From assembly GCA_026770705.1 (NCBI GenBank), contig JANJGN010000012.1:45818001-45882000 (forward strand): a DNA stretch of 64,000 nt, written 5' to 3'. Source of the stretch: Isurus oxyrinchus (lineage: Eukaryota). Position numbers and translations under genes: made by a program. The notes under the pieces are model-generated. The model worked only from the letters and a program-made list of their open reading frames with translations, searched no databases and was not told the origin of the DNA. Below are positions 1 through 64,000 of this stretch, one piece after another (position 1 is the stretch's first letter; the number at the start of each line of letters is the position of its first letter).

Positions 1-674
1 GATACAGATGGTCTGACCAGTAATTTTTATATGCCAAAGCTGGATACCTGGCCAGTATCAATGGGCAGTGGTATGTAAAGAGGGTGGACAGCAGCACCAC
101 TGTAGTTGGCTACCTTGGGCTAGGCCAAGGGCCAAAAGGGGAGACTGTTAGGGGGGAATATAGGGATACAGTAAGAAATTATTGAAAGGGAATGAATTAC
201 TTAAAATCTCCAAGCAGCCAGTACTACCAAGCACATTGGCAGTTAAAGGTGACCAGATGAACCTTGCACAGCCTTAGGGCCTGCAAACTAGAAAGGCTTT
301 GGGAACTGGACTGGAGTCAGAAGGTGGCAATACATAGATTAAGTGTGCTCTTCAACAGATAGGGGAAGAACAGATGGTCCTAATTTAGATAGGAGGGAAG
401 GTCTCTGACTGGGTGAAAACAAATAGGGACATATGGTGCATGTACTTGTTACCAGAGATGTCTGTTTAATGTAAACCTATATGTTGACGAGATTGGAATC
501 TGGAAACTGTTCTTGTACGTGACCAATAATGTATAAATATACTGAACCCTTGTAATTTAGCAGAGTGCTATCTCAAGCTGCATTGAGATGGTTGTCCCCT
601 TGCAATTGCTCAAATAAACGATCATGGCCTGTACCTGAGACTCCTGAGGTCCATTTGTCAAAGTGACCACAACA
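1..674 (+). mobile_element. 3' end of an endogenous retrovirus (3' internal sequence, PPT, 3' LTR 146-674); same family as the provirus at 33435-40872
   Basis: 1-145 aligns to 40221-40377. The PPT-like AAAAGGGGAGAC is followed by TGTTAGGGGG...CACAACA (TG...CA termini). TATA-like GTATAAATA near 530 and AATAAA at 613-618. Confidence 0.85.
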
Positions 675-1756: not shown

Positions 1757-4700
1757 ACATACATACATACGAACAAGGGGCAGGAGTAGGCCATTCAGCC
1801 CCTCGAGCCTGTTCAACCATTTAATAAGATCATGGCAATCTGATAGCAACTTGAAATCTGAATCCTGCCTACCCCCAATAACCGATCACTCCCTTTGCTT
1901 ACCAAGAATCTATCCACCTCTGCCTTAAAAATATTCAAAGACTTTTCTTCCACCACCTTTTCAGCAAGAGACTTCCAAAGATTTATGACCCTCTGATTGA
2001 AAAAAAATTGCTACATCTCTGTTTTAAACAGGTGACCCCTTATTTTTAAAGTCACCCCTAGTTCTAGATTCTCTCACAAGAGGAAATATCCTCTCCACAT
2101 CCACCCTGTCAAGACCCCTCAGGATCTTATATATTTCAATCAAGTCACCTCCTACCCTTCTAAACTCCAGTGGATACAAGTCTAGTTTGTCCAACCTTTC
2201 CTCATAAGACAACCCATCAATTTTAGATATCAGTCTGGTAAACCTCCTCTGAACTGCCTCCAACGCATTTACATCCTTCCTTAAATAAAGTGACCAATAC
2301 TGTACACAGTACTCCAAATGATGTCTCACTGGTGCCCTGTATAACTGAAGCATAACCTCCTTACTTTTGTATTCAATTTCCCCTCGCAATAAATGATAAC
2401 ATTCTATTAGCTTTTCTAATTACTTGCTGTAACTGCATACTAGCCTTTTGTGATTCACGTACTAGGACACCCAGATCCCTCTGAATCTCAGAGCTCTGCA
2501 ATTTCTCACCATTTAGATAATATGCTTTTCTTTTATTCTTCCTGCCAAAATGGGCAGTTTCACATTTTCCCACATAATACTCCATTTGCCAGATCTTTGC
2601 GCACTCACTTAACCTATCTATTTCTGTTTGTAGCCTTCTTATGTCCGCTTCAAAACTTACTTTCCTACCTTTCTTTATGTCATCAGCAAATTTGGCAACC
2701 ATCCCTTCTATCAAGTCATTTATATATATAGTAAACAGCTGAGGTCCCAGCACTGATCCCTGTGGCACACCACTCATTACATCTTGCCAACCTGAAAAAG
2801 ACCATTTATGCCTACTCTATACTTCCTGTTAGCCAGCCAATCTTCTATTCATGCCAATATGCTACCCCCTATACAATGAGTGTTTATTTTCCACAATAAC
2901 CTTTGATGTGGCACTTTATCAAATGTCTTCTGAAAATCTAAGTACAGTACATCCACTGGTTCCTCTTTATCCACTGCACATGTTACTTCCTCAAAGAACT
3001 CAGATAAGTTGGTTAAACACAATTTCCCTTTCACAAAACCATGTTGACTCTGCCTAGTGAACTTGAATTTATCCAAATGTCTTGCTATAACTTCTTTAAT
3101 AATAGTTTTTAACACTTCCTCTATGATAGATGTTAAGCTAACCGGCCTGTAGTTTCCCGCTTTCTGTCTTCCTCCCTTTTTGAATAATGGAGTTACATTT
3201 GCTATCTTCCAGTCTAATGGGACCTTCCCCGAATCTAGAGAATTTTGGAAAATCAAAACCAATACATCAGTTATCTCACTAGACATTTATTTTAAGACCC
3301 TAGGATGAAATCCATCAGGACCCGGGCTCTTGTCAGCCTGCAGCTCCAACAATGTACTCAGTACCACTTATCTGGTGACTGTAATTTTCCTGACTTCCTT
3401 CCCCACTTCCATTTCCTGGTTTATAGCTGCTTCTGGGATGTTACTTGTATCCTCTATAGTGAAATCTGTTGCAAAATACCTGTTCAATTCATCTGCCATC
3501 TCCTTGTTTTCCATTATCAATTCTCCAGTCTCACTTTCTATAGGACCAATGCTCGCTTTGTTAACTTTCTTTTTAAAATATTTATAAAAACTCTTACCAT
3601 CAGTTTTTATATTTCTGACTAACTTTCTCTCATACTCTAATTTTTCCCTCCTTATTAGTCTTTTAGTCATTCTTTGCTGTTTCTTATATTCTGTCGAATT
3701 TTCTGACCTGCCACCTGACTTTGCACAATTATATGCTTTTTCCTTAAGTTTGATACCATCTTTAACCTTTCTAGTTTACCATGGATGGTGTGTCTGTCCC
3801 TTGGACTTTTTCTTTCTTGTTGGAATGTATCTATTCTGTGCATTCTGAAATATCCCCTAAAATATTAGCCACTGCATCTCTATTGATCTATACCTTAACC
3901 TAATTTGCTTAGCCAGCTCTGGCTTTCATGCCCTCATAACTGCCCTTATTTAAGTTCAAAAACTTACCACAAACCCATTCCTCTCTCCCTCAATCTGAAT
4001 GTAGAATTCGATTATATTACGGTCGCTGCTACCTATGAGGAAGCTTCACTATGAGATAATTAATTAATCCAATTTCATTTCACAAAACCAGGTTTAGTAT
4101 AAAACAAAAACAGAATTACCTGGAAAAACTCAGCAGGTCTGGCAGCATCGGCGGAGAAGAAAAGAGTTGACGTTTCGAGTCTTCATGACCCTTCGACAGA
4201 ACTTGGTTCTGTCGAAGGGTCATGAAGACTCGAAACGTCAACTCTTTTCTTCTCCGCCGATGCTGCCAGACCTGCTGAGTTTTTCCAGGTAATTCTGTTT
4301 TTGTTTTGGATTTCCAGCATCCGCAGTTCTCTTTGTTTTTATCTCAGGTTTAGTATAGCCTGCTCTCTGGTTGTTCCAGAACATGCTGTTCTAAGAAACT
4401 ATCCCGGAAACATTCTATGACCTTCTCATCTAGTCTACCTTTGCCTATCTGACTTTTGCAGTCTACAGGTAAATTAAAATCCCCCATGATTATCACTGTG
4501 TCTTTCTGACAAGCTCCTATTATTTCTTCCTTTATGCTCAACCCTACCATGTGGTTACTATTAGGGGGCCTGTACACAACTCCCACAAGTTACTTCTTGC
4601 CTTTACCATTTCTCATCCCTACCCAGACCGTTCCCACATCCTGGTTTCCTGAACTTAGGTTATCCCTCTCCAAAACCATCATTAACTAACAGAACCACCT

Positions 4701-5631: not shown

Positions 5632-8600
5632 ATGGATTTGCAAAAAGCATTTGATAAAGTGCCACATAACAGGTTTATCAGCAATGTGAAAACTCATGGA
5701 ATAAAAGGAGCAGTCACAGCATGGATATGGAAATTGGGTGAGTGGCAGGAAACAGTAGTGGTGAATGGTTGTTTCTTGGACTAGAAGAAAGTATACAGTG
5801 GTATTCGCCAGTATTTACAGGTGGCACAAAATTTGGAAGTATCATGAACTGTGAGGAGGATAGTGATAGGTTTCAAGTGGTCATAAAGAGGCTGGTGGAA
5901 TTGGTGGATACATAACAGATGAAATTGAATGCAGAGAAATGTGAAGTGATTTATTTTGGGTGGAAGAACTGGAAGAGGTAATCTTTTAAAAAAAAAAGGT
6001 ATAATTCCACAGCGGGTGCAGGAGCAGATGTACCTGGGAGTATATGTACAAAAATTGTTGATGTTGTCAGGGCAAATTGAATAAGTGGTTATACACTTAT
6101 GGGATCCTGGGCTTTACAAATAGTGGTATTGAGTAAAAAGGCAAGGAAATTCTGAAGAACCTTTCTAAAATACTGGTTTGGCCACAACTGGAGTATTGTG
6201 TCCAATTCTGATTAACACATTTTAGGAAGGATGTGATAGCATTAGAGAAGCTACAGAAAAGATTTACAGAATGGTTCCAGGTATGAGGGACTTCAGCTAC
6301 GTGGATAGATTGGAGAAGGTGGGGTTACTTTCCTTGAGAAGACAGGGTTAAGAGGAGATTAAAAACAAAAAACTGCGGATGCTGGAAATCCAAAACAAAA
6401 ACAGAATTACCTGGAAAAACTCAGCAGGTCTGGCAGCATAGGCAGCATCAAGCCATTGTTTCCAGGACTGTCACTGACCTCATCTCCTCTGGGGATCTTC
6501 CTCCTACAGCTTCCAACCTGATAGTCACCCAACCTCGGACGGCCTGCTTCTACCTCCTACCCAAAATCCACAAACAGGACTGTCCTGGTAGACCAATCAT
6601 GTCAGCCTGTTCCTGCCCCACGGAACTCATTTCTCGTTATCTTGACTCCCTTCTCTCTCCCCTTGTTCAGTCTCTTCCCACCTACGTCCGTGATTCCTCT
6701 GACACCTTACGTCACATCAACAATTTCCAGTTCCCTGGCCCCAACCGCTTCCTCTTCACCATGGACGTCCAATCCCTCTACACCTCCATCCCCCATCAGG
6801 ATGGTCTGAGGGCCCTTAGCTACTTCCTCGAACAGAGGCCCGAACAATCCCCATCCACCACTACTCTCCTCCGTCTGGCTGAACTTGTTCTCACACTGAA
6901 CAATTTCTCCTTCAACTCCTCTCACTTCCTCCAAATAAAAGATATGGCTATGGGTACCCGCATGGGCCCCAGCTATGCCTGTCTCTTTATGGGGTATGTG
7001 GAACATTCCTTGTTCCAGTCCTACTCCGGCCCCCTTCCACAACTCTTTCTCCGGTACATCGATGATTACTTCAGTGCTGCTTCGTGCTCTCGTTGGGACT
7101 TGGAAAAATTTATTAATTTTGCTTCCAATCTCCACCCCTCCATCATTTTCACGTGGTCCATCTCTGATACTTCCCTTCCTTGACCTCGCTGTCTCAATCT
7201 CTGGTGATAGACTGTCCACCAATATCCATTACAAGCCTACCAACTCCCACAGCTACCTTGACTACAGCTCCTCACACCCTGCTTCCTGTAAGGACTCCAT
7301 CCCATTCTCTCAGTTCCTTCACCTCTGTCGCATCTGTTCCGATGATGCTACCTTCAAAAACAGTTCCTCTGACATGTCCTCCTTCTTCCTTAACCGAGGT
7401 TTTCCACCCACGGTCGTTGACAGGGCCCTCAACTGTGTCTGGCCCATCTCCCGCGCAACCGTCCTCACGCCTTCTCCTCCCTCCCAGAAACATGATAGGG
7501 TCCCCCTTGTCCTCACTTATCACCCCACCAGCCTCCGCATTCAAAGGATCATCCTCCGCCATTTTTGCCAACTCCAGCATGATGCCACATTTTCCCTTCA
7601 CCCCCACTGTCGGCATTCCGAAGGGCTCATTCCCTTCGGGACACCCTGGTCCACTCCTCCATCACCCCCTACTCCCCAACCCCCACCTATGGCACCACCC
7701 CATGCCCACGCAAAAGATGTAACACCTGCCCCTTCACTTCCTCTCTCCTCACCGGCCAAGGGCCCAAACACTCCTTTCAAGTGAAGCAACATTTCACTTG
7801 CATTTCCCCCAACTTAGTCTACTGCATTCGTTGCTCCCAGTGCGGTCTCCTCTACATTGGAGAGACCAAATGTAAACTGGGCGACCGCTTTGCAGAACAC
7901 CTGCAGTCTGTCCGCAAGAATGACCCAAACCTCCCTGTGGCTTGCCATTTCAACACTCCACCCTGCTCTCTTGCCCACATGTCTGTCCTTGGCTTGCTGT
8001 ATTGTTCCAGTGAAGCCCAACGCAAACTGGAGGAACAACACCTCATCTTCCGACTAGGCACTTTACAGCCTTCCGGACTGAATATTGAATTCAACAACTT
8101 TAGGTCTTGACCTCCCTCCTCCATCCCCATCCCCTTTCTGTTTACCTCTTCCTTTTTTTTTCCAATAAATTATATTGATTTTTCTTTTTCCCTCCTATTT
8201 CCATTATTTTTAAATATTTTTAAATCTTTTATGCTCCCCCCACCCCCACTAGAGCTATACCTTGAGTGCCCTACCATCCATTCTTAATTAGCACATTCGT
8301 TTAGATAATGTCACCAACTTCGACACCTATGTGTTCTTTTGTTCTGCCGCCTGTGACATCTTTTGATGATATGCTTCCATCACTGCTTTTGCCTACAACC
8401 ACACCACCCCCCTCCACTTCTCTCCCCCCACCCAACCCCCACCCGCCCCCACCACCACCTTAAACCAGCTTATATTTCAACCTCCCTGGGATTCACCTAG
8501 TTCTGTGGAAGGGTCCTGAGGACTCGAAACGTCAACTCTTTTCTTCTCCACCGATGCTGCAAGACCTGCTGAGTTTTTCCAGGTAATTCTGTTTTTGCTT

Positions 8601-23889: not shown

Positions 23890-25360
23890 CCCTAGACTCA
23901 GGGGAGGTGCTAGAGGACTGGAGAATTGCAAACAATTGTTCAAAAAAGGTTGTAAGGATAAGCCCAGCAATTGCAGATCAGTCAGTTTAACTTCACTGGT
24001 GGGCAAGATTCTAGAAACAATTATTTGGGATAGAATTAGTAGTCACATGGAAAAATTTGGGTTGATAAAGAAAAGTCAGCATGGTTTCTAAGAGGGAAGT
24101 CATGTTTAACTAACTAGCTGGAATTTTTTGAAGAGGTAACTGGAAAAGGTCGATGAGGGTAATGCTGTTGATGTGCTGTACATGGACTTCCAAAAGGCAT
24201 TCGATACAGTGCCACACACCAGACTTGTGAGAAAAGTTATTGGTCATGGAATAAAAGGGACCGTAACAATGTGGATGCAAAATTGGCTGAAAAATAGGGA
24301 GAAGAGAGTAATGGTCAACGGATATTTTACGGGCTGGAGGAAGGTTTGTGGTGGAGCTCCCCTGAGGCTGGTATTGGGACCCTTGCTTTTCCTCATATAT
24401 TAATGATCTAGATCTTGGTGTGCAGGGGACAATTTCAAAGTCTGCAGATAATATGAAGATTGGGAGTGTTGTGAACTGAGAGGAGGACAGTGCAGAACTT
24501 CAAAAGGACATAGACAAGTTGGTGGAGTGGGCAGAGAAGTGACAGATGAAGTTCAGTGTGGAAAAGTGTGAGGTCATGCATTTTGGTAGAAAGAACATAG
24601 ACAATAAAAAATAAGGGGTGAAATTTTGAAGCAGGTGCACAAGCAGGAAGACCACGGTCTATATTTTCATAGATCATTGAAGGTGACAGGACAGGTGGAG
24701 ACAGCAGTTAATAAAGCATATAGTATCCAGGCTTAATTAATAGGGGCACAGAGTACAAGAGCAAGGAGATTATACTGAATTTATATAAGACACTCGTTAG
24801 ACCTCAACGGGAGTATTGTGTACAGTACTGGGCGTCACAGTATAGGAAGGACATGAACACTTTGGAGAGAGTGCAGAAGAGGTTTACAAGAATTGTTCCA
24901 GGGATGAAAAACTTCACTGATGAAGATAGATTGGAGAGGTTGGGAGTATTCTCTTTGGGGAGAAGAAGGCTGAGAGGAGATTTGATAGAGATGTTCGAAA
25001 TCATGAGTGGGCTGGACAGAGTAGATAGAGAGAAGCTGTTCCTGCTCATAAAAGGGTCAAGAGTGAGAGGTCACCAGTTTAAAGTGATTTTCAAAAGAGG
25101 TAAATGTGACATGAGAAAAAACTTTTCCACACAATGAGTGGTTCGATTCTGGAATGCGCTGCCTGGAAGTGTGGTGGAGGCAGGTTCAATCAAGGAATTC
25201 AAGAGGGCATTAGATGATTATTTGAATAGAAACAATGTGCAGGGGTATGGGGCAAAGGCAGGGCAATGGCACTAGGTCATAATACTCATTTAGAGAGCTG
25301 GTGGAGACATAATGGGCCAAATGGCCTTCTTCTATGCTGTTAAACTTTTGTGATTCTGTG
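23890..25360 (+). mobile_element. CR1 LINE 3' fragment nested in LINE family B
   Basis: KSQHGF, YMDFQKAFDTVPH, LERVQKRFTR. Family-B sequence resumes at about 25360 (GAATCCTGCGGTGAGTAACTC). Confidence 0.85.
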
Positions 25361-27604
25361 AATCCTGCGGTGAGTAACTCACCTCCTGATTCCCCAAAGC
25401 CTGTCCATCATCTACAAGGCACAAGTCAGGAGTGTGATGGAATAATCTCCACTTGTGTGGATGAGTGCAGCTCCAACAACACTGACGAAGCTTAACACCA
25501 TCCAGGACAAAACAGTCCGCTTGATTGGCACCATCTACAAACATTCACTGCCTCTACAACCGACACACAGTGGCAGCAGTGTGTACAACCTCCAATATGT
25601 GCTGCATGAACTTACTAAGGTTCCTTAGGCAGTACCTTCCAAAGCCACGACTGCTACCATCTAGAAAGATAAGGGTAGGAGATACATGGGAACACCAGCA
25701 ACTGCAAGTTCCCCTCCAAGCCACTCACCACCCTGACTTGGAAATATATCACCATTCCTTCAATGTCACTGGGTCAAAATCCTGGAACCCCCATCCTAAC
25801 AGCACTGTGGATGTACCTATGCCATATGGACTGCAGCAGTTCAAGAAGGCAGCTCGCCACCACCTTCTCAAGGGCAATTAGGTATGGGCAATAAATGCTG
25901 GCCCAGCAGTGATGCCCACATCTCATGAATGAATAAAGAAAAATCCCTTTGATCTTCCTCCTTTTTCCATTCAATTTATCGCTCAGCAACTTCCGAAGCC
26001 ACCCGTTATTATTGAAACATTCTCTGGACCGATTTTATGATAGTTTTGTTTTGTTTCTCTCTTTGTTTGACTCTCACTTGCTCGTTATTGATAGGGCACA
26101 CACTCTGGTCACTCACCTTTCCTGACTGAGCTAACCTGGCGCTGGTCCTTTCAATGCGCTATCCTACTGACTGAACTGACAGGCTACGCACTGCAATTTC
26201 ACCACAAGGGATCTGTCTGCTTACCAGCTCTTTATTCAAGCACTAACTTTGAACTCTGTCTTCAAAGCTTTTCTGTGCAGTCTTCACACTCAGATTTCAA
26301 CACTCTCTGACATTGCGAATTCTTTGCAATCTAACCAAAACATCAAGGTTGGTCTCATGCCATATAGCACAATCTGTGGCTGTTCACCATGCCATACCTG
26401 TACTTAATCTTGCTGCCACACTGTTTGACCACCACTGAATATCATGTGCTTTTATAATGATATAAAGGCACCAATCCGTCGTAAGTGATTGTGTAACATG
26501 TGGTTTCATTTATTGAGACTAGGCACATGAGAACAATTATGAAAAGTTAGAAAAAGTGAAGATACCAGCAGAAGAGCTGTTTGTGTTGTGCTCTGCTCAA
26601 AGCAAAAGTGAAACTAATACTGGATCGCATGAAACACTTCCCTCCTAGTGATGTCTTGCTCCTATCCCTTAAATGTGTTGTACAACAGAAAATAATACAA
26701 TCAAAGAGAGAATATGAAAATGGAATGGCAGTTAACATAAAATCAGATGTAAATAGAGAGGTAGGGTAAGTCCGTTATGCTTAGAGGCATAGGGTAGTGC
26801 TGGAATACTTAATGAGCATATTTTTTCAGTATTTACTTAGAAAGACGATGCTGACAAAATATTGGTAGAAGTGGAGATGGTAGAGGTAATGGATGGGGTG
26901 AAAACTGATAGGCAGGGATGTACTGGGTAGGACGATCATTAAAGGTGGCAGGACATAATGAAAGGACAGTTAACAAAGCATATGGGATCTTGGTCTTCAT
27001 AAATAGAGGTATTGAGTACAAAAGCTGGGAAGTTTTGCTGAACTTGTGTGAAGCTCTGGTTAAGCCACAACTGGAATACTGTGTCTGGTTCTGGTCACCA
27101 CACTTTAGGAAGGATACAAGAGTCCTTGAAAGAATGCAGAGGAGATTTTCCAGAATAGTTCTGGGGTGAGAGATTTTAGTTACAAAGTTGGTTTGGAGAA
27201 GCTGGGATTGTTCTTGGAGCAATGGCAATTGAGAGGAGGTGTACAGATTATGACAGGTTTAGATATGATAGGCTAAACAAAGCTGATGCCATTAGCTGAT
27301 GGTACAAGGACTGGACGAGACAGATATAAGGTTTTGAGCAAGAGATGCAGAGGGAATGGGAGGAAGAACTTTTCTGCACAGTAAGTGGTTTTGATCTGGA
27401 ACTTACTGTCTAGGAGTGTGGTGGAAGTAGAGATGATGAATGATTTCAAAAGAAAATTGGATGGGTGTTTGATGGAAATCATATAATAATATAATAATAA
27501 AAGGGATTCAGAAGGCATTTGGGACTGATTGGATTGCTCCACAGTGAGCCAACATGCACACAATGGGCTGAACAGTCTCCTACTTTGCAATTGTGACTTA
27601 TAAC

Positions 27605-29917
27605 ACAGAATCACAGAACCTCAGTGCAGAAGAGGCCCTTCAGCTAATCGAGTCTGCACCGACAGGTGAGAAACACCTGACGTACCTACCTAATCCCATT
27701 TACCAGCACTTGGCCCCTAGCCTTGAATGTTATGATGTGCCAAGTGCTTATCCAGGTACTCTTTAAAGGATGTGCGGCAAGCCTCTTCCACCACCCTCCC
27801 AGGCAGCGCATTCCAGACTGTCACCACCCTCTGTGTAAAAGGTTTCTCCTCACATCTCCCCTAAACCTCCTGGCCCTCACCTTGAACTTATGATCCCTTG
27901 TGACTCACCCTTCAACTAAGGGGACCAGCTGCTCCCTATCCACCCTGTCCATGTTCCTCATAATCTTGTACACCTCGATCAGGTCGCCCCTCAGTCTTCA
28001 CTGCTCCAACAAAAACAATCCAAGTCTATCTGACCTCTCTTCATAACTTAAATGTTTCATCCCAGGCAACATCCTGGTGAACTCCTCTGCACCCCCACCA
28101 GTGCAATCACATCCTTCCTATAACGTGGTGGCCAGAACTGCACATGGTACTCCAGCTGTGGCCTCACTAAGGTTCTATACAACCCCAACATGACCTCCCT
28201 ACTTTTGTAATCTATGCCTCAATTGATAAATGCGAGTGTCCCATATTTCTTTTCACCACCCCATTAACATGCCCCTCCGCCTTCAGAGATCTATGGACAC
28301 ACACGCCAAGGTCCCTTTGTTCCTCAGCACTTCCTAGTGTCATGTCATTCATTGAATACTTCCTTGTCAAATTACTCCTTCCAAAGTGTATCATCTCATA
28401 CTTCTCAGGATTAAATTCCATCTGTCACTTATCTGCCCATTTGACTATCCCATCTATATCTTCCTGTAGCCCAAGGCACTTAACCTCACTATTAACCACT
28501 CGGTCAATCTTTGTGTCATTCGCAAACTTACTAATCCTACCCCCCACATAGTCATCCATTTCGTTTATATAAGTGACGAATAATAGGGGACCAAGCACAG
28601 ATCCCTGTGGTGCACCACACTGGACACTGGCTTCCAGGCATGAAAACATCCTTCTGTCATCACCCTCTGTCAGCTACAACTAAGCCAATTTTGAATCCAT
28701 CTTATCAAATTACCCTGAATCCCATGTGCATTTGCCTTCTTTATAAGTCTCCCTTGTGGGACCTTGTCAAAGTCTTTGCTGAAATCCATATAAGCTACAT
28801 CAACTGCGCTACCCTCATCTACACACCTGGTCACCTCCTCAAAAAATTCAATCAAATCTGTTAGGCATGACCTCCCTCTGACAAAGCCATACTGACTATC
28901 CCTGATCGAATCTTGCCTCTCCAAGTGGAGGTAGATTCTCTCCTACAGAATTTTCTCCAGTAGTTTCCCTACCACTGATGTGAGACTCACTGGCCTGTAG
29001 TTCCCTGACTTATCTCGAAAACCCTTTTTAAATAGCGGAACCACATTTGCTGCTCTCCAGTCCTTCCCCGTGGCCAGAGAGGAATTAAAAATTTGGGTCA
29101 GAGCCCCTGTGATCTCCTCCCTTGCCTCCCTCAGCAGTCTGGGACACAAATCATCCGGACCTGGAGATTTGTCCACTTTTAAGCCTGTCTGTCAATGCCT
29201 CCAATACCTCGTCACTCCCTATATCAATTTGCTTAAGAACCTCGTAGTCTCTCTTCTTGAGTTCAATACCTTCATCCTCATTCTCTTGGGTGAAGGCGGA
29301 TGTGAAGTATTCATTCAACACTCTAGTGATGTCCTCTGGCGCCACCCATAGATTGCCCCCTTGGTCCCTTATGGGCCCTACTCTTCCCCTGGTTATCCTC
29401 TTGCCATTGATATACTTATAGAATATCTTGGGATTTTCCCTACTTTTACCAGCCAGAGCTTTCTCATATCCCCTCTTTGCTCTCCTAATTGCTTTCTTGA
29501 GCTCCACGTTGCACTTTCTATTCTCCAATAATGCCTCCACTGATTTGCTTCTCTTGTACCTGCTAAAATCCTCTTTTCCTTCTCATCGTAATCTGAATAT
29601 CTCTGGTCATCCATGGTTCTCTGGGCTTGTTACTCCTTCCTATCACCCTAGAGGGAATATGTTGAGCCTGTACCCTCCCCATTTCCTTTTTGAACTGCTC
29701 CTCTGTAGATTTCTCCACAAGTAGCTGTTCCCAGTCTACCTTGGCCAGGTCCTGCCTTATTTTACTAAAATCCGCTCTCACCTAATCCAAAACATTGTTT
29801 TGCAACTTGCCTATTTCTTTGTCCATAACAAACTTAAACTGTACCATGTTGTGGTCGCCATCACTAAAATGCTCACCCACCACCACCTCAGCCATCTGTC
29901 CGGCTTCATTCCCCAAA
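27605..29917 (-). mobile_element. CR1 LINE; an upstream part or a second copy lies at about 31695-32260
   Basis: DKSPGPDD, NYRPVSLTSVVGK, QYGFVRGRSC, APQGSVLGPLLF. Confidence 0.88.
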
Positions 29918-31470: not shown

Positions 31471-33953
31471 CTCATAACCCTTCTATATCTAATTCTCACT
31501 AGCGGAGGAATGGTAGGCTCTGTCTTTGCCAGTTTTTCCTGTCGGTTTGGAGGTTGAGCTGGCATCTGGATACTTTACATTCTTTTCTTCTATTGCATCA
31601 TGTTGAACTGCACTTGGTTGGTTCAGCTGTTGCGCTGATTGATGGATGCCACTGTAACTCATTTCTTGTGGGTTGGATGAACATTGTACTCGTCTCCTTG
31701 TTATCACTAAATTGTTCCCCTACCACCACCTTCTCCACCTGTCTGGCTTCATTCCCCAGAATTAGGTCCAGCACTGTGCCATCCCTTGTTGGACCCTTGA
31801 CATATTGACCTAATAGGTTCTTCTGTACACATTTCAAAAAATCCACTCCATCCAAGCCCTTAATATATGTCTGTCCCAATTGGAAATTTGACATCACCAA
31901 CTACAATGATCCTATTGTTATTATTTTTACACAACTCCGTAAATTGTGCACATATTTGCTCCTCAATTTCCCACTAACTATCTGGGGGTCTTTAATAAAC
32001 ACCTCACAATGTGGCTGCCACTTTTGTATTCCTAAGCTCTACCCACAAAACTTCATTCGATTTCACCACCCCACCCCCCCTCTCCTTACTGCAGTAACTG
32101 ACTCGTTAACTCATAATGCAATACCTTCTCCTTTTTCACCCCCTCTCTTGTCTCGCCTTAAGATTATATCTCCCGGAATGTTGAGCTGCCAATCTTGCCC
32201 TCTCTCAACCACCTCTCTGCGATGGCTACTATATCACAATTCCACATGTCAATCCTCATCCTCATGCTATCTATGATTTTGACTGACGATGGCTGATCCA
32301 GATTATTCACAGCCTTGCTATTCTATCTGATCATGAACTGAGCTTCTGACCCACATCTACTCCATTATCAAGGCTGCCTAGTTATATATCCATAATATGC
32401 GCCCCTGCCTCAGTCCATCTGCTGATTAGAGTTCATCCATGTTTTTGTTACCTCCAGTTTTCACTATTCTAATGCTCCTCTAGCCATTCTTCCACTTTCC
32501 CTCTGATGAGGAATATCTTGATAGGACTTTCTCCTGGTACTTCTCCTGCATTCCCTCTTCGACCTACTGAAGCGGAAGAGGATGACGAGGATGAAGAAGA
32601 TGTTGAGGAGGAGGAGCCAAAGACATTTCCCCTACATATCCTGGTAACCTCTCCCACCTAGACAAACCTTTTGAGATTTCTGTGCTCCTCCAATTCTTCC
32701 CACTCGTATATGTCTGATTTTTATTGCTCGGGATGGGATAGCTAATCCTCCTCATATGAAATGAGAGTGACAACTGCTTTCAATGCTCCTGGGGCTACAA
32801 GTCAAAAATTCAGCCAGAATTCCCACAGTCCTGACCCCTGTCAATCACCATGATTCCTAGACGTGAGATGAGGACAGAATTGCGTTGCTTTGTGCCTGCA
32901 CTGTCGATCTACATTCTTTGTCTAGTGTTCCACATGGAGACATTGACATTCAATGACATTCTCATCGCTAAATCCCCCACAATTAATGTCCTGTTGGTTA
33001 TCAATGACCAGAAACTGAACTGGACCTTCCATATAAAAACAGTGATTACAAGAGCAGGTCAGGGTCTAGGAATCCTGCGGCGAGTAACTCACCTCTTGAC
33101 TTCCCAAGACCTGTCCACCATCTACAAGGCACAAATCAACAGTGTGATGGAATACTCTCCACTTTCCTGGATGAGTGCAGCTTCACCGACACGCAAGAAG
33201 CTTGACACCATCCAGGGGAAAGCAGCCCGCTTGATCGGCATCCCGCCCAACACCTTCATCAATCACTTCCTCCGCCACTGATGCACATGGGCAGCAGTGT
33301 CTACCATCTGCGAGATGCACTACAGCAACTCACCAAAGATGCTTTGACAGCACCTTCCAAACCCAAGACCTCTACCACCTCAAAGGACAAGGGCAGCAGA
33401 TGCTTGGGAACATCATCTCCTGGAAGTTCCCCTCTGTTAGGGGGAAGTAAAGGGATACAGTAATTATTAGGGGGAATATAGGGGTACAGTAAGAACTTAT
33501 TGAAAGGGAATGCATTACTTAAAATCTCCAAGCACATTGACAGTTAAAAGTTACCAGATGAACCTTGCACAGCCTTAAGGGCCTGAAAACAACAGAAAGG
33601 CCTTGGAGCCAGACTGTAATCAGAGGATGGCAATAACAACTAAGATTGAGTGTGCTCTTCAACAGATAGAGGAAGAACAGATGGTAAGCTCTCTGCCTGG
33701 GTGAAAACAAATAGGGATGTACTTGTTACCACAGGTGTCTTGTAATGTAAACATATATGTTGACAAGATCAGAATCTGGAAACTGTTCTTGTACATGACC
33801 AATAATGTATAAATATGGTGAACACTTGTAGCTTAGCGGAGTACTGTCTCAAGCTGTATTGAGATGGTGTCGTCCTTGCAATTGCTCGAATAAACGATCG
33901 AAACCTGTACCTGAGTCTCCTGTGGTCCGTTTGTCAAAGTGAACTCAACAATT

Positions 33954-33971
33954 TGGCGTAGTCGGTAGGAT
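33954..33971 (+). promoter_or_regulatory. Primer-binding site complementary to tRNA-Ser
   Basis: TGGCGTAGTCGGTAGGAT is a 17/18 match to the complement of the vertebrate tRNA-Ser 3' end (TGGCGTAGTCGGCAGGAT). Splice-donor-like GTGAGT at 34009-34014. Confidence 0.85.
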
Positions 33972-34155
33972 ACTTGGATCGGATCCTTGGGACGGCTCTG
34001 CAAAGTGGGTGAGTATATTCATTTACCACCCGTAGTTAGTGCAGCAAGCCTACCCAAGAACAATCTGGTCAAGTATCTAAGAATGAGGAGGAGGACTCAG
34101 GGCAGAAGATAGCCGGGGTAAGAGGGGGAGCCGGGCAGGTGGGCTAGTGGGCCCA

Positions 34156-34520
34156 AAGCCGCGCAGGAAGGCCAGAACCATTACCAGAGATAGGAGGCAG
34201 AGCCGTCCTGGCAGGTTATGGTTTGAAACAAAACCTTAACCAAAGCCGCACAGGGAGGCCAGACCCCAGTTAAGAGGAGGGTGGAGTCGTGCTGGTGGGT
34301 TACGGTTTGAGATATAACCTTAGCCGAAGCAGCGCAGGGAGGCCAGAAGCCAGTCAGCGGAAGCTGGAGCTGTGCTGGCAGGTTACGGTTTGAAATATAA
34401 CCTTAGCCGAAGCCGCGCAGGGAGGCCAGAAGCCAGTAAGAGGAGGGTGGAGCTGTGCTGGCGGGTTCCGGTTTGAAATATAACCTTAGCCGAAGCTGCG
34501 CAGCGGGGCCAGACCCCAGT
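34156..34520 (+). repeat. About 4.3 tandem copies of an 84-bp unit in the ERV 5' leader
   Basis: AAGCCGCGCAGGGAGGCCAGA...GGTTACGGTTTGAAATATAACCTTAGCCG recurs at about 34156, 34242, 34327, 34410 and 34493. Confidence 0.85.
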
Positions 34521-34559
34521 GAAATTGCACATACTGCAAGAAACTAAGTTGTTCGGACC

Positions 34560-35600
34560 GTGCGAACGTACCGCGCAGAGATAGATGGAAATAAGAACAG
34601 AGTGCCATCAAGGAAACAGAATAGTGCTGTGGAACTCGACTGGGGAACAGCAGACTCCATTACGAGGTTCATAGCGGAACAGCAGTCAAAACTAATCACT
34701 AAAATGCAGAAGGAGGGGCGGAACCCACAGGGAACCCCCGGAGAACAAAAACAGTGGTGGATTGAGCAGGAAAAGGATAAGGAAAAGAAAGGGGTAAAGG
34801 TTATTACTTTCTTGTATCTGCAGTTCTGCAGACAGGTTAATACGAAGTGTCAGTCGAAAGAGAGAGACAAAGTCAGATTCAGGACAGATCAGAACAGTGG
34901 TGGCAGCTTGTAGTGATACTGATCAAGAGGAGGAGAACTCCAAAGGAGAAACCTATGATGGAGTCAGGGCAAAACCCCCCCTCATATGAACCAACCGCCC
35001 CACTGTGCCTGTTGAATCCAATGACCCCTATGGCAGTAACTGTTAGGAAAAGTAAAGTCAGGAAAGGCGAATTAAAAACTGAAGGGAGAACGGGGGGCTG
35101 AGGAATAGGGGGAGGATGAAGAGATTGAGAGGGTTATGGAGAAAGTTAGACATGTAGCAGACAGTCCAGGGGAGAAACAGGTTTTACTTAAAGAACGGCC
35201 GAAACTCAAGCCTCGGCATAATAACCCAGATTTCTGGACCAAATTGTGGGAAATGCAGGATTTCCATGCAATGCACCCCTTGATACCCATATACTGCTGA
35301 AGGCTAAATGCCCAGGGGATATCTGGGGAAGATTACCCCTGCAGTTTAGAAGTGGAAACTGGGCCGTCCCAGATCGGGAGAAGGCGACAGCCCTGCTCAG
35401 GGAGTTTGAGAGGGCAGTCGAGGAAGCTTGGAGGAGGGAGAAATGAATTGGGGGTGTATAATGTCCCGTGCGGGATGATGAGATTTTCCTGAAAATGTGG
35501 AAGGGTGATTGGGACCCGAAAGATTCGCTACTGAATTTTCTGTAACTTAAAAAAATGAATTGATCTAAGTTACAAGAGCTTCTTGTGCTGAAGAGAGAGA
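34560..35600 (+). pseudogene. gag: ERV gag remnant, frameshifted
   Basis: Position after the leader; basic N-terminal region; late motifs PPSYEPTAP at 34976-35002. Confidence 0.6.
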
Positions 35601-36066
35601 GAGAGAGAGAAAGAGAGAAAAGTGGGGCACCCCTAGGGGCGTTAATAAGCACTGACAGGCAGTAGCAGGGGAAATGTGAGCTTTCGTCAGTTTGATTGTC
35701 CCTATAGGTGGAGCCTTCAAGATCCCTTTATTTCCCCCAGTGCTATTTGAAGTTTCGTTTAGATTATGAGAGTTTTAAATTGTTAGACAGCTTCCAAGCT
35801 GATTGGGATTGATACATACAAGTTACATTAATTCATATGAGTTAGTATTCTAAACATTGAGGAAAAGAAACTACCTGAAGTTCAATGGATTCTAGGAAAA
35901 CCAAAAGGCACGGTCTAAGTGGTTCCAGTGGATAAAAAGGGGTTTCTTTTGATGAGATTAATTAAATATGAAAGGAAATCTGCACCCCAACAGCCCTGAT
36001 AATTTCTCAAAAGGGAATTTTCATTTTAAAAAATTTGACAACAATTGGCACTAATTCAACTGTTGC

Positions 36067-37549
36067 AAGAACAAAGAACAAAGAAAAGTACAGCACAGGA
36101 ACAGGCCCTGGCCTGCGCTGATCATCTTGCCCGTCAACTAAAACATTTTGCACTTCTGGGGTCCGTATCCCTCTATTCCCATCCTATTCATGTATTTGTC
36201 AAGCTGCCTCTTAAACACCACTATCATACCTGCTTCCACCACCTCCTCTGGCAGCAAATTCCAGACACACACTACCCTCTATGTAAAAAACTTGCCCCGC
36301 ACATCTCCTCTATAGTTTTCTCCTCTCACTTTAAATCTATGTCCCCTAGTAATTGACTCTTCCACCCTCGGAAAAAGCTTCTGACTATCTACTCTGTCCA
36401 TGCCATTCATAATTTTGTAAATTTCTATCAAGTCGCCCCTCAATCTCCGTCACTCTAGTGAGAACAATCCGAGTTTCTCCAACCTCTCCTCATAACTAAT
36501 AATCTCCTGACAAGGCAGCATCTTGGTAAATCTCCTCTGCACCCTCTCCAATGCCTCCATATCCTTCTGGTAATGTGACGCCCAGAATTGCACGCAATAT
36601 TCCAAGTGTGGCCTAACCAAGGTTCCATACAGCTGCAGCATGACTTCCCAGCTTTTATACTCAATACCCCTGCCAATGAAGGCAAGCATGCCATATGCCT
36701 TCCTGACTACCTTATCCAGATCCCTCTGCCCGTCAATGCACTTAAGGGTTCTGGCTTTTACTGTATAATTCCTGCCTGTATTAGATCTTCCAAAATGCAT
36801 TACCTCGCATTTGTCCGGATTAAACTCCATCTGCCATTTCTCCGCCCAAGTCTCCAACCGATCTATATCCCGTTGTATATTTTGACAATCCTCTTCACTT
36901 TCTGCAACATCTCCAAGCTTAGTGTCATCTGCAAACTTACTAATTAGCCCAGTTACATTTTCCTGCAAATCATTTATGTATACTACAAACAGCAAAGGTC
37001 CCAGCACTGATCCCTGCGGAATTCCACTAGTCACAGCTCTTCATTCAGAAAAGCACCCTTCCACTGGTACCCTCTGTCTTTTATGACCAAGCCAATTCTG
37101 TATCCATCTTGCCAGCTCACCTCTGATCCCATGCGACTTTACCTTCTGTACCAGTCTGCCATGAGGGACCTTGTCAAAGGCCTTATTGAAATCCATGTAT
37201 ATAACATCCACTGCCCTTCCATCGTCGATCATCTTTGTCACTTACTCGAAAAACTTGATTAAGTTAGTGAGTCACGACCTCCCCTTCACAAAACCATGCT
37301 GCCTCTCACTAATACGCCCATTTGCTTCCAAATGGTAGTAAATCCTGTCACGAAGAATCTTTTCCAATAATTTCCCTACCACTGACGTAAGGCTCACCGG
37401 CCTGTAATTTCCTGGATTGTCCCTGCTACCCTTCTTAAACAATGGAACAACATTGGCCATTCTCCAGTCTTCTGGGACCTCACCCGTAGCCAGTGAGGAT
37501 ACAAAGATTTCTGTCAAGGGCCAGTGAAGATACAAAGATTTCTGTCAAG
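36067..37549 (-). mobile_element. CR1 LINE 3' fragment inserted in the ERV
   Basis: SGIPQGSVLGPLLF, FADDTK, YMDFNKAFDKVPHG. Tail repeat near 36067-36085. Short duplication of the 5' end at about 37490-37549. Confidence 0.9.
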
Positions 37550-38179
37550 CTTTTGTATTTGTAAGTCTGTCCCCAAAATAAGCTAAGCTCAAGACCTTGA
37601 CAAAGTTTGGCAGAAATCCAATTTTTGGCTGTGTTAATGAATCTGGGATAATTCTAAAGAAATGGGTCAGAAACAATTTAGTGGGTTATATTTGAGACAA
37701 TAAAATGTTTGAGAAAATAAGGAAGCAAAACATGTCAATGCCTGATTTCTGTTTTTAAAACTGTTATGAGAATATTTTATTTATTTTAAAGTCTCTCCAG
37801 GCAAACCTGAACAAGATCATGGTCAGGGGAAAAAACTTAGAGGTAAAAATATGTGGAATCTGTAGTTCAGGAATTGAAATGTAAGGAGAAATAATACTTA
37901 ATAACAAGTTACCACAAGATGGATACAGGTAAAGGGAAAGCTGGAAAAAGGCTAAATAGATGTATTACTGATTATATTAATGTGCCTGCAAGGTACTAAA
38001 AGTAAGACCACAGGATTAACACTACGATGACAGACAGAGTTAAGTGGCTCGCAGAGAGAACCATCACCTGTAGTGAAGATACTGAGCCATTGAAAGATAG
38101 GATAAGAAGGTGCACTGTAGAGTTGTGTCGGCAGTTTAAGGAATTGAGGTCTCAAGTGAGACAGCAACAGGAGAGAGTA

Positions 38180-38793
38180 GACTGGAAGGAGTGGAGGGTG
38201 CCTATCCAGATGGATTCAGATCAAGGAACTCATTTCACAGGAAGAGCCATTAAAGAAATGTATAAATTTAAATATAAACAGAAATTCCACATTCCCTACC
38301 AGCCACAGAGCTCGGGAATGGTGGAAAGGATGAACTGAACTTTTAAAAAAAAAATCATCAATCACAAAAGCAATTCAAGAGACAGGGAACAGCCCAATAT
38401 TCTAATGAGCTTTAGGGGCTACCTCAAGCAGGACCACGGGGTTCACCCCATCTGAAATAATGACAAGGAGAACAGTGCAATTACCGAATGATTTCATAGT
38501 AGGTGTGGGAGATGTAGGACCAGTAAAAGGAAGGATGTGAGACTATATGAGGGAAATAAGTAAGCAATTGCATGAGTTAAGAAAGGAAGTCAGAGACCAA
38601 CAGGTGGTTAAGGACATGGAAACAGGCAAATCCAAAGAGCAACAATGGACTAAGTGGGGAGTAAAGTGAGATTTGAGGGAACAGGCATGGACCATACGAG
38701 GTAATTATGACAGGTGATACATGCGCAGTGGTAGATATGAAAACGGGAAGTAAATGGAGACATTACACACAGTTAAAGATACATGAAAATTGA
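38180..38793 (+). pseudogene. pol: ERV integrase core and C-terminal remnant
   Basis: DDE motifs MDSDQGTHFTG and FHIPYQPQSSGMVERMN, followed by stops and frameshifts. Confidence 0.85.
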
Positions 38794-38999
38794 CCACGCA
38801 AGAACAGGAGCCGATGCTAATGTCTCCACAAATCTACGATCCTAGTCGTGGACGTATCGGACTGGCAACAAGGTTGGGGATCTTCAATATTACGATATTC
38901 AATATAGGGACATCAGTGGTTAATTCAGAGCCTGGCAACTGTTGACCAGAAGGTCCGTACCCTGAGCTTTAAGCTTAGGAAATTCTAGAGCAGGGACAG

Positions 39000-40227
39000 G
39001 GAATTCATAACACCCAATGAAATACAGACCAGGACATGACATGGTTAATCCAAAGCCTGGCTACCGTGCTCGAAAGTCATGTGGGGGCTATCGACTAACT
39101 GATTGAAATAGGGAAAAATATTTCAGACGAAGCGAGCAGAAATGATGTTTGCAGCACCTACGGATCTTGGGCACTGGAATAAGCACAAGAGTAGTTAAGA
39201 CAGATTAATGAAGGGATCGATCCTTTATGGGTAACTAATGAGCATTTATTTAACCTTTCATGACACAAGGATCATGACTTGACCGGTCGCCAGCTCAGAG
39301 GTGTAATACACGTATATAGAACGAATGTTGAATGTATAGTGAATAGGAATATGCTAAGAGGCATTATATTAGTAATACCTGTTATACCTATGTCAACACC
39401 TGGCAGGACATTATATAGAGTAGAAAACATTGGGGTTATATGGGAGAATTACTATATTAAGTATCACGATATTCCACCATACGCAGTAGACATAGTAGGA
39501 AATATATTTAGCACCACATTAGAAGGGTGTAGTATAGAGACCACCGAGGTAGTATGTGCACATCCAATATATGAGACGGAAGATGCAAAGTGCGGATTTA
39601 AAGCAGCAGCAAATTGTACAATGGAAACTATATGGCCTGCAAAAGAACTGACCCATGTTGCATATGCAGGGAATGGGAGATATTGTATCACCACGTGACA
39701 GTATAGAATCGGGGGTAACTGGATATGCCTCATCTACAATCATTTGGTGTGCCTACACCCACAGATGCCAACAAGGGTGGGGAAGGTGGAACTGGTCGAA
39801 ATATACAAGGGAGGAACGACTACTATTCAGGTCAAGGAAAGCCTTAAGGATAACCTGACACAATATTTGAACCAGTTCTCCTATGAAATTCCCCTATTAC
39901 CAGAGCACCTAACCACGATTTGAAGACAGGCTCAGCAGATATACACTGTAGCAACAGGTTAGAGCCTTAAAGACGGATATTGAACAAATAGGTGCTTCCA
40001 CCTGGTGAGAGGATCTGTGGAATTGGGGCTTGAACGTACAGATACTCTGCTGGATTCAGGTTATCACCCATGCCCTAGTCATACTTCAGCTGATATTGAT
40101 TGTGTTTCCAACGCACTTGATATACTATACCCGGAGGTCACAAAAAAGGTGGTGTTGCGGGAGTTTTAGTAGGTGGAGCAGGAATCTGGTAAGCCAGAGG
40201 TTCGGATTAAAGGACCCGATGATGTAG
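39000..40227 (+). pseudogene. env: ERV env remnant resembling foamy-virus/lokiretrovirus Env (F-protein-like)
   Basis: ORF 39279-39698 has the pattern LYRVENIG...IPPY...LEGC...VVC...KCG...NC...GNGRY. Trp-rich segment and hydrophobic TM (WNWGLNVQILCWIQVITHALVILQLILIVF) at about 40018-40107. Confidence 0.65.
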
Positions 40228-42948
40228 ATGGTTTAACCAGTACCTGTACCCTTTACATGCCAAAACTGGATACCTGGCCAGTATCAATGGGCAGCAGTAC
40301 GTAAAGGGGAGGGTGGGAATGGACAACACCACTGTAGTTGGCTACCTTGGGCTAAGCCAAGAGCCAAAAGGGGGGACTGTTATGGGGAAATAAAGGGATA
40401 CAATAATTATTAGGGGGAATATAGGGGTACAGTAAGAATTTATTGAAAGGGAATGAATTACTTAAAATCTCCAAGCGCATTGGCAGTTAAAAGTTACCAG
40501 ATGAACCTTGCACAGCCTTAAGTGCCTGAAAACAACAGAAAGGCCTTGGAGCCAGACTGTAACCAGAGGATGGCAATAACAACTAAGATTGAGTGTGCTC
40601 TTCAACAGATAGGGGAAGAACAGATGGTAAGCTCTCTGCCTGGGTGAAAACAAATAGGGATGTACTTGTTACCACAGGTGTCTTTTAATGTAAACCTATA
40701 TGATGCCGAGATCGGAATCTGGAAACTGTTCTTGTACGTGACCAATAATGTAGCTTAGCAGAGTACTGTCTCAAGCTGTATTGAGATGGTGCCCTCCTTG
40801 CAATTGCTCGAATAAACGATCAAAACCTGTACCTCAGTCTCCTGTGGTCCATTTGTCAAAGTGACCACAACACCCTCCAAGCCACACACCATCCTGATTA
40901 GAAATATATCGCTGTTCCTTTGCTGCTGCTGCTGGGTCAAAACCATGGTCTCCCTTCCTAATAGCACTGTGGGTGTACCTCACAGACTGCAGTGGTCCAA
41001 GGAAGCAGCTCACCATCACCTTCTTAAGGGCAATTAGGGATGGGCAATAATTCTGTGATTCTGTGAAATACTGGCCTAGCCAGCGAAGCCCATGTCCCAT
41101 GAAAGAATAAAAAAAGTGTGACTGATTGCTGCTGACACCCTCAGCTCCTGAGGGGCAGCTACCAAAAAAGGAGCAAAAATTCATCCAAAGAAAAAATAAA
41201 ATCACATATTGGATCACTTGACCTTTGGGTGGAGATGCAAAACAGGTGATATTTGGATTTAAAGTCATTGTATATCTTGATGGATTTTCCTCCTATGACT
41301 TTGATTGAAAGGGAATTAAACTCAAGCAGTATAATGAAGGCCAATTCGATATCAATATCACCCCAAGTTAAACAGAGCCCGTAATATGTTAAGTGAATAA
41401 AGTTGCTGGGTGCAGTAACCTGAGCAACCAACATAGCAGAATATCTGAAGCAATTCTTGTTAAAATTGACCTTGCTCAGGCTCCCCACAATATCGTTTCA
41501 AACAGTGAGTGTCTGACAGGTACTTAAAGAAATTTGTCAAATGGAACAGAAACCAAGTTATTTGTGTAATGTTGATATAAAATACAGATCTGGAGGGCTT
41601 GTTTGTTCTGGACAGTCCCTCTCCTTAAAATAGCAGTGCACAGATCCTGCTGGGACCCCAGGTGTTTATCAGTTTCACCCACATGGGGCTTCTGGTTTGG
41701 GCTGCATCAAATCGCATTCACATACTGAAAGCTGATTTGGTGAAGATGCAGTTTAGCTTCACCCCAACCCCCTTCAATATTTAAATGAGGTACAATTACA
41801 TACATAGATAGGTTGCATGTATGTTTTATGCTGTAGATTCACACTTTCTAGGAGATGAATTTCAATGATGTGCTGAATGCAGCACCATATATTAGGAACT
41901 CTGTATAACTATTGATGACTGCTTTCTTCATTTTCTTTATCCAACAAGAGCCAACTTGTCCCAAAACAATTATGATTATGCTGGGTATGGATTTAAAAAC
42001 AGCCAGAAATAGACACTGGGGTCTTGACTACATATCCACCATCATTCCCACCAGCAACAACTGACGGCACAGAAACAGGCCATTCAACTCAAACAGTCCG
42101 TGTCGGTGTTTATGCTCCACTTGAGCCTCCTGCTACCTTTTCTCATCTAAATCTATCAATGTAAACATCTATTCCCTTCTCTCTGAAATGCTTGATGAGC
42201 TTCCTCTGAAATACTCCTACACTATTTGTTTCAACTGATCCCTATGGTAGTGAGTTCAACATTCTTACCACTCTTCAGGTAAACAAGTTTCACTCTCAAT
42301 GTTCTAATTCTATGAAAAGTACAGAGTGAGATAATAGAATGTATTTAACAGTTATTAGAATATGTTGAATAATTTTAATAGTCAATTGCTGATGGAAGGC
42401 TAGAATATGATTGTTAGATGGCAGGCACTGGTGACTAATTATACTTCAGACCTTTCCTTCAGCACCTTCATTCACTGTTGTAGCAGTGGCAATGTCCACA
42501 TGGCAATATTGTCTGTGCACTAACTGAGGGGTTCACCCTTGTGTCTATGCAGGCATCACACAGTAAGTGTGCTATTGTGAGGGGCTTGTAATATAGAGAA
42601 TGTTTCAGATTGTTTTTTCTGAAAGGAAGCTACCTGTAACATATGCCTTATCAATGTGTGGTTTAGAAGTGTCACAGAAATCCAGTTTTATAAGGTGTCT
42701 GTACTGTTGAAAGAACCACAAGAGAAGAATGTTGCTCCAGAATGCAGTATAGCAGAGAATTTTTGTTTTAATTTAAACTCCAGCCCAGGACAGAATAAAC
42801 AAGCAAACAAAAAGAGGGTACAGTGGGAAATGTCAGATAACTAACTTTCTTCAGTTTAAGATGTAAGTTAATTACTAACAACACTGAGGTCTCATTCTCT
42901 CAATCTGTCTTTCTGACACTGAATGGGAGGGTTTCAAATCCTTGCTTT

Positions 42949-63612: not shown

Positions 63613-64000
63613 AATATTTCAGATACTTCTTGTGGTAGGGAACTACTAGTACTGTCAGTGTGTGGTTCAGTAAAGTGAAATTCAGTTTTATAATGTTTCT
63701 ATTAATGAGAGAACCACAAGCTAAGAGTATTGCATCAACATGTGGTTGTTATTGGACATATAATCTGCAATTTACACTCCAGCCCAGGACAGAGGGAGCA
63801 GTCACTGTTATGAAGTTTCTTGAAAATCCAAATCTTTGAAGCACAATCTACATAAGACGCTTGTTAGGCTTTATCTGAAGTACTGCGTCTAGTTCTGGGC
63901 ATCATACTTGAGGAAGGATATGAAGGCTTTGGAGAGAGAACAGAGGAGATTCACAAGAATGATTCCAGCAATAAAGGACTGTAGTTATGAGGATAGATTG

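Follow-up and report, generated by a model that had tools for sequence, protein, structure and literature searches.

As far as the accessible portions of the sources cited here go, shark endogenous retroviruses (ERVs) near snakehead retrovirus (SnRV) and the epsilonretroviruses are already known, among them CmiERV lineage I of the elephant shark, which has the same serine primer-binding site (PBS) as the element described below and an envelope protein (Env) that reads by eye as gamma-type (PMC4422223). Foamy-like ERVs of sharks and frogs are known from pol alone (PMC5512871), and ERVs of zebrafish have been mentioned as 'ancestral' to the gamma and epsilon viruses (PMC8672886). Foamy virus Env resembles the paramyxovirus fusion protein (F), and Fernandez et al. 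assign the Env of orthoretroviruses collectively to class Ia, with an origin separate from that of foamy Env and F (PMC11468914); epsilon Env has been termed neither gamma nor beta type (bioRxiv 2021.11.23.469661), and Wang and Han, who described the lokiretroviruses, left four scenarios open for the origin of retroviral Env (PMC7947760). Here we analyse a 64,000-nt stretch of the Isurus oxyrinchus genome (contig JANJGN010000012.1, positions 45,818,001 to 45,882,000; hereafter the window), which carries a provirus with two long terminal repeats (LTRs) at window positions 33435-40872. This provirus is probably a defective, likely helper-dependent member of a large ERV family whose Env is predicted to be F-like (class Ib) and whose Pol likely diverged along the stem leading to class I (gamma and epsilon retroviruses). 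By the tests run, the family is an unclassified deep fish-type ERV lineage and neither a lokiretrovirus nor a foamy virus.

The Env carries much of this reading. One natural Env frame of the family encodes 727 aa, with an N-terminal hydrophobic stretch (signal peptide), a Pro/Thr-rich linker, a single furin site (RDKR at 284), 18 cysteines, long helices with a Cys-rich core, and a C-terminal anchor. For residues 205-690 a paramyxo-/pneumovirus-F-like (class Ib) fold is predicted. The model, built on a 47-row alignment (pLDDT 69.6, pTM 0.53), has post-fusion F of respiratory syncytial virus as its best Foldseek match in the PDB (E 5e-12) and also matches F of human parainfluenza virus 3, Newcastle disease virus (NDV) and henipaviruses; 247 matches reach E <= 0.001, and all 40 rows listed are F proteins. 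In the VIA structural search NDV F came out best (Z 12.3, root-mean-square deviation 17.2, 356 aligned) and the first 11 ranks, from Z 12.3 down to 8.3, held nothing but F proteins and foamy Env (the latter at 8.6 and 8.3), while the Atlas score of the Env was 0.94 to a cluster with 21% Fusion_gly and 11% Baculo_F. Among predicted viral structures, Foldseek matched the Envs of walleye epidermal hyperplasia virus 1 (WEHV-1, E 2e-8), walleye dermal sarcoma virus (WDSV, 5e-6) and feline foamy virus (6e-6), together with F-type proteins of a lispivirus, a fish filovirus and a baculovirus. The predicted likeness to F lies in fold and order of elements; sequence identity is 9-12%, the family Env has about 200 extra N-terminal residues, and its genome is retroviral. 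The N-terminal Env module, modelled without an alignment (pLDDT 29.5, Atlas score 0.76), could be assigned no fold.

At the sequence level, Pfam and PDB searches with the Env returned nothing significant. Searched with the family profile, 25 reference Envs gave 24.8 bits for WDSV and 9.5 for feline foamy virus, above the best of 500 shuffles (6.2), and 6.0 for SnRV, which is not above it. Profile comparison by hhalign gave 94.6% for WDSV (E 7e-8), 79.6% for a foamy profile (E 1.5e-5) and 76% for SnRV (E 2e-5), and 3% or less for three gamma-type Envs (murine leukemia virus (MLV), Xen-1 and L053). A first, sequence-only reading of the window had called this Env foamy/F-like from the spacing of its cysteines; the predicted fold bears this out, and the register seen by eye is the one that hhalign recovers for foamy Env. 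Its remark that the gamma-type immunosuppressive domain (ISD) and CX6CC motif are lacking also stands, as neither occurs in any of five long family Env proteins. It had further named a match to a gamma- or epsilon-type Env as evidence against itself: the best reference match does belong to an epsilonretrovirus, WDSV, whose Env is, however, F-like too. As a separate observation, the WDSV Env (L097:5962-9648) and, more weakly, the SnRV Env (L051:6131-9535) align with the F-like family profile.

Placement of Pol rests on several sets of trees. We gathered 140 reverse transcriptase (RT) rows, of which 81 entered a fast tree and 58 (56 plus two new ones) a careful tree of 237 columns, after short, redundant gamma-like and some Gypsy rows had been dropped; whole-Pol trees had 31 rows and 902 columns, and a mixture-model tree (LG+C20) 22 rows. 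Reference genomes came from viral_contigs, with nine labels checked against published RT motifs and SnRV also by its published length; the delta label and that of L053 we presume from motif class. The loki proxy, P0057, is the sole row of the 140 with the published loki motifs, and a first scan of viral_contigs and a scan of metagenomes yielded no further loki rows. In whole-Pol trees, class I, three unplaced relatives and the shark clade come together (99/99; 100/100 under LG+C20), the shark clade branching below the others, and three nodes separate the family from crown class I. Each domain taken separately also groups with class I (thumb plus tether 98/98, integrase (IN) 90/94, RNase H 85/79), IN doing so away from the loki proxy and the NYNRIN-like rows. 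Natural family fragments join the proxies P0126/P0129 in the tether and IN trees, and P0129 scores 384 bits on gammaretroviral RT-RNase H versus 194 on foamy. In the RT tree P0044, P0045 and P0046 cluster with the family (100/95), and the resulting clade joins teleost-type ERVs (95/94); the family lies within Retroviridae, apart from loki (100/99), and two starred nodes stand between it and the Gypsy (Metaviridae) rows. The proposal of a deep lineage outside the named genera is thus upheld, RT and IN nesting in neither the gamma, the epsilon nor the Gypsy groups. The idea of a spuma relationship survives in the motifs of the RT core only, whereas the class I side is favoured by thumb and tether, RNase H, IN and whole Pol. 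Family relatives carry the tether (RT_RNaseH_2) and RNase H domains, and Gag zinc knuckles (zf-CCHC, E 3e-10) are present, two in P0045 and one intact each in L035 and L036. Two apparent groupings were discarded along the way: the teleost rows P0069-75, sister in the RT tree, as fish foamy-like ERVs, which their motif ruled out, and the union of deltaretroviruses with epsilon viruses in the RT tree, a long branch that we take for an artefact.

Several results weigh against an F-like Env joined to a class I-stem Pol. TM-scores of the Env model against F are only 0.27-0.43, and no Fusion_gly match appears among the Pfam matches listed for 47 Env rows. The median ratio of nonsynonymous to synonymous substitution (dN/dS) in env, 0.38 over 300 pairs of 25 copies and 0.25-0.72 for the studied copy, comes from copies picked by protein similarity, which lowers dN. 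The whole-Pol trees use the proxies P0126/P0129, cluster members from other sources, and their root is one long loki branch, with loki IN reported as shuffled (PMC7947760); alpha, beta, lenti, fish foamy-like (FLERV), CmiFLERV and ERV4 rows are absent from the trees. RT alone yields a basal polytomy of the family with foamy, ERV-L-like, SnRV and class I groups, its core scores best on foamy RT (137 bits versus 116 for MLV), and IN scores best on prototype foamy virus among the matches listed (foamy and HIV integrases only). Moreover, the approximately unbiased (AU) test on RT does not reject a union of the wider group with the SnRV clade (p=0.285). This last result suits a class III, SnRV-related (clade Huo) ERV in which the pull towards class I would stem from domain exchange or a rooting error, a placement that we regard as unlikely. 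Such an ERV would also account for a Ser PBS and 3-nt spacer like those of CmiERV lineage I, which clusters with SnRV, for the class III-like RT motif DIANGFW, for a zinc-knuckle context that by eye resembles SnRV Gag, and for SnRV being the best viral_contigs match to family RT; shark ERV RTs are reported to be mostly clade III, the frog element XtERV-S has a Ser PBS too, many family copies have a 5-bp target-site duplication (TSD), and SnRV Env aligns with family Env from the furin site onward. However, whole Pol speaks against both a union of the shark clade with SnRV (p=0.03) and a single clade made up of every row outside class I (p=0.0009), three separate domains lean to class I, the family is a separate clade in every tree, and its TSDs are a mixture of 4 and 5 bp. 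CmiERV lineage I and XtERV-S differ further in their gamma-type Envs, the former also in its tether (by eye) and the latter in lacking Cys-His boxes. A class III/SnRV-like first reading of our own was set aside after the whole-Pol trees.

The foamy scores raise the prospect that the family belongs with the shark and frog foamy-like ERVs (CmiFLERV, XtrFLERV), for which only pol has been found and whose pairing of hosts recurs in the sharks and frogs that hold Env homologues; we rate this as quite improbable. Foamy viruses (Spumaretrovirinae) and fish foamy-like ERVs share with the family the class Ib Env core and the RT motifs DxANGFW and YVDD, but AU tests reject the family with foamy rows, all of them mammalian (RT p=0.008, Pol p=0.02), Gag has the zinc knuckles that fish foamy-like ERVs lack, and the fish FLERV motif occurs in none of the 140 RT rows, a set that leaves CmiFLERV sequences themselves outside the comparison. 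The family differs from foamy viruses, too, in its short N-terminal signal peptide and single furin site, in an extra Env module that appears to sit at the N terminus instead of within the F core, in its Ser PBS (Lys, Asn or Thr in foamy viruses) and in TSDs of 4 or 5 bp as against 4 bp. An ordinary epsilonretrovirus-like ERV is very hard to reconcile with the data: WDSV supplies the best Env match of the 25 references, the Envs of WDSV and WEHV are F-like by Foldseek, their Gag has zinc knuckles and their Pol lies on the class I side, but a union of the family with WDSV/WEHV is rejected (RT p=2e-6, Pol p=7e-8) and the three nodes below crown class I intervene. The family Env is also shorter (727 versus 1229 aa), its RT has YVDD in place of YMDD, it has a Ser PBS, and no accessory frames were seen in the family. 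We attach next to no credence to a lokiretrovirus, the first in cartilaginous fish, although the sequence-only reading had suggested a loki-like or otherwise unclassified spuma-related family. Lokiretroviruses do share an F-like Env with signal peptide, one RXKR site, coiled coils, anchor and, by eye, the same Cys register, as well as tether and RNase H, but an F-like Env is no marker of loki, because the foamy/F resemblance is common to several retroviral lineages. The family RT has LPQG, not PFG(Y); loki motifs occur in none of nine family RTs, AU rejects the union with the one loki proxy (p=0.0009), RT lies inside Retroviridae, and IN is not beside the NYNRIN-type group. Searching this genome with a loki-type RT gave top matches of 37-39% identity at best (150 of 19167 candidates scored), and two of these matches, placed in the tree, are SnRV-clade ERVs. 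The accessible text of the lokiretrovirus survey reports none from cartilaginous fish, in line with the earlier reading, and the Chondrichthyes row of its supplement reads 3 and 0 (PMC7947760). We retain a class I-stem lineage with an F-like Env as the preferred reading.

The family is large. In the 4.98-Gb genome at least 151 sequences match the env stretch (150 of 2195 candidates scored), and the LTR has 1936 candidates (40 scored). RT stands beside the same env and LTR in several copies, and L033 preserves the full order LTR-PBS-gag-pol-env-polypurine tract (PPT)-LTR. The studied copy lacks protease, RT and RNase H, and its Gag ends ahead of the nucleocapsid. A filler of more than 500 nt is common to L012, L014, L018, L020 and L136 (five of 21 loci tested, a sixth partly), the same five share an IN duplication, and neither feature was found in any RT-bearing copy tested among the 21 loci. 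Since the pol deletion is common to several copies, it is older than those insertions, and the RT-less copies are likely a helper-dependent subfamily. Although the 5-bp TSD noted at first holds for the studied insertion, it is no constant of the family: among 14 putative solo LTRs that could be aligned at both ends, four have exact 5-bp and four exact 4-bp duplications and six imperfect ones, and among five paired copies with clean ends two have 5 bp, one has 4 bp and two are unclear. Beyond this genome, 38 Env homologues at E <= 0.001 are present in the protein library; of ten homologues looked up, seven come from sharks (Heterodontus, Heptranchias, Pristiophorus, Mustelus, Chiloscyllium) and two from frogs (Pelodytes, Xenopus).

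In the provirus itself (Table 1), the LTRs both run TGTTA...CAACA and agree at 470 of 495 aligned bases, with 25 differences and 21 gap columns. Their distance translates into about 12 or about 119 million years at rates of 2.2e-9 or 2.2e-10 per site per year, neither of them measured for this host; both rates have been used in earlier work (PMC7947760, PMC4422223). The CCCTC duplication is genuine: with the provirus removed, its flanks form a single uninterrupted LINE (long interspersed nuclear element) fragment. The PBS comparison is with the 3' end of tRNA-Ser(AGA) from the same genome, three of its four fetched tRNA loci being called Ser; a Ser PBS is already on record for one ERV of the elephant shark and one class III ERV of a frog. 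LTRs, TSD, Ser PBS, IN remnant, env-like frame and PPT all lie where the sequence-only reading had put them. Its DDE remnant does hold the second D and the E, whereas the HHCC region and the first D are missing (tblastn with P0129). By comparison with other copies, a deletion behind the remnant of the env signal peptide has removed the furin site and most of the surface unit, and the longest open env stretch covers 144 aa (39264-39698). The LINE that later entered the provirus we take to be CR1-like. The copy is a decayed relic, and nothing in it points to a function.

Table 1. Features of the provirus and its target site, in window coordinates (K2P, Kimura two-parameter distance).
Feature	Position	Strand	Evidence or remark
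5' TSD, CCCTC	33430..33434	+	within older LINE fragment
5' LTR, 516 nt, TG...CA	33435..33950	+	K2P to 3' LTR 0.052
PBS, tRNA-Ser(AGA/TGA), behind 3-nt spacer	33954..33971	+	17/18 bases of the genome's own tRNA-Ser
Leader, four tandem copies of about 84 nt, 73-88% alike	34187..34520	+	leader repeats in other copies too
gag remnant, broken, stops ahead of zinc knuckles	34548..35521	+	tblastn with P0045 residues 8-342, E 7e-38
AT-rich filler replacing protease, RT and RNase H	35522..36069	+	common to RT-less subfamily
5'-truncated LINE, later insertion	36070..37549	-	RVT_1 E 3e-13; absent from other copies, empty site in L014
C-terminal half of IN, decayed duplicate piece	37947..38170	+	P0129 residues 993-1069, E 2e-6; duplication in 5 other copies
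IN remnant: second D and E of core, C-terminal part	38192..38778	+	P0129 residues 929-1139, 37-60% identity; rve E 0.014
env signal-peptide region remnant	38821..38886	+	frame translation against other copies
env transmembrane unit (F1-like), stops and frameshifts	38892..40152	+	73-76% identity to P0001 residues 295-722
PPT, ending 1 base ahead of 3' LTR	40366..40376	+	
3' LTR, 495 nt	40378..40872	+	
3' TSD, CCCTC	40873..40877	+	

Other parts of the window and genome hold related material. About 33 kb upstream, window positions 1-674 (L136:2684-9175) hold the 3' terminal part, LTR included, of another provirus from the RT-less subfamily; it is a separate insertion, because its LTR is 80% alike to the studied one. 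More fragments akin to the LINE inserted in the provirus lie at window 2712-3231, 6122-6267, 23901-25040, 26975-29100 and 63863-63958; at 6338-8110, five overlapping open frames of 173-281 aa occupy a GC-rich skewed stretch that is probably a repeat. Two short copies, L013 (3.4 kb from LTR to LTR) and L015 (5.3 kb), keep the env transmembrane region and little else, as further deletion subfamilies. Many near-alike RT copies cluster on small contigs (L037 and contigs C44, C59 and C213); L037 has RT and IN and no env match, and may represent an env-less, locally amplified subfamily. A remoter sister family in the same genome (L041, L043, L045, L046) has Envs with 25-35% identity to P0001 and 40-46% to a Mustelus protein, and a different PBS sequence, and L099 and L101-L103 belong to a second ERV family, of SnRV-clade/NYNRIN type. 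A 700-aa YIDD frame in L038 (L038:4356-6455), at one point taken for Pol, proved to be an inserted, unrelated RT of another retroelement class. In Heterodontus francisci, P0002/P0003 carry a family env transmembrane fragment annotated within fbxo15 isoforms, by exonisation or as an annotation artefact. Uninterrupted Env homologues of 723-749 aa (P0012 from a bamboo shark, P0019 from a frog, and P0039 from a further source, as listed) are either young insertions or host-kept genes.

For the class I-stem family with an F-like Env we propose the following history. An infectious parent retrovirus would have primed reverse transcription on tRNA-Ser and packaged its RNA through a zinc-knuckle Gag. 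Cell entry would have been mediated by a furin-cleaved Env that refolds like F, the N-terminal ~175 residues of which may have formed a receptor-binding module, by analogy with the modular scheme of class Ib. The virus presumably entered the germ line many times. RT-less genomes may have been copied and integrated in trans by enzymes of RT-bearing relatives, and purifying selection on env points to spread by reinfection. The studied copy would then have received its LINE insertion and decayed.

A search of mostly open literature turned up no shark ERV described as combining a Ser PBS, a zinc-knuckle Gag and an F-like Env, and no account that calls the Env of WDSV or SnRV F-like; subscription papers or Repbase may cover some of this. 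With an F-like Env at the class I stem, in WDSV/WEHV and probably also in SnRV, class Ib Env extends to both sides of the retroviral tree, which favours, and suggests, an F-like Env as the ancestral retroviral Env. We offer the broader picture tentatively, and with somewhat more doubt than belief: an undescribed deep retrovirus lineage, widespread in sharks, would sit on the class I stem with a compact F-like Env, and together with epsilon, snakehead, foamy and loki Env it would show that a paramyxovirus-type fusogen is ancestral and was later supplanted by gamma-type Env on more than one occasion. The question of Env ancestry thereby becomes testable by structure-based trees. In addition, the family supplies a full anatomy for shark ERVs of a type known mainly through counts of RT; it numbers hundreds of copies, includes a subfamily that has env but no RT, and shows TSDs of mixed length.

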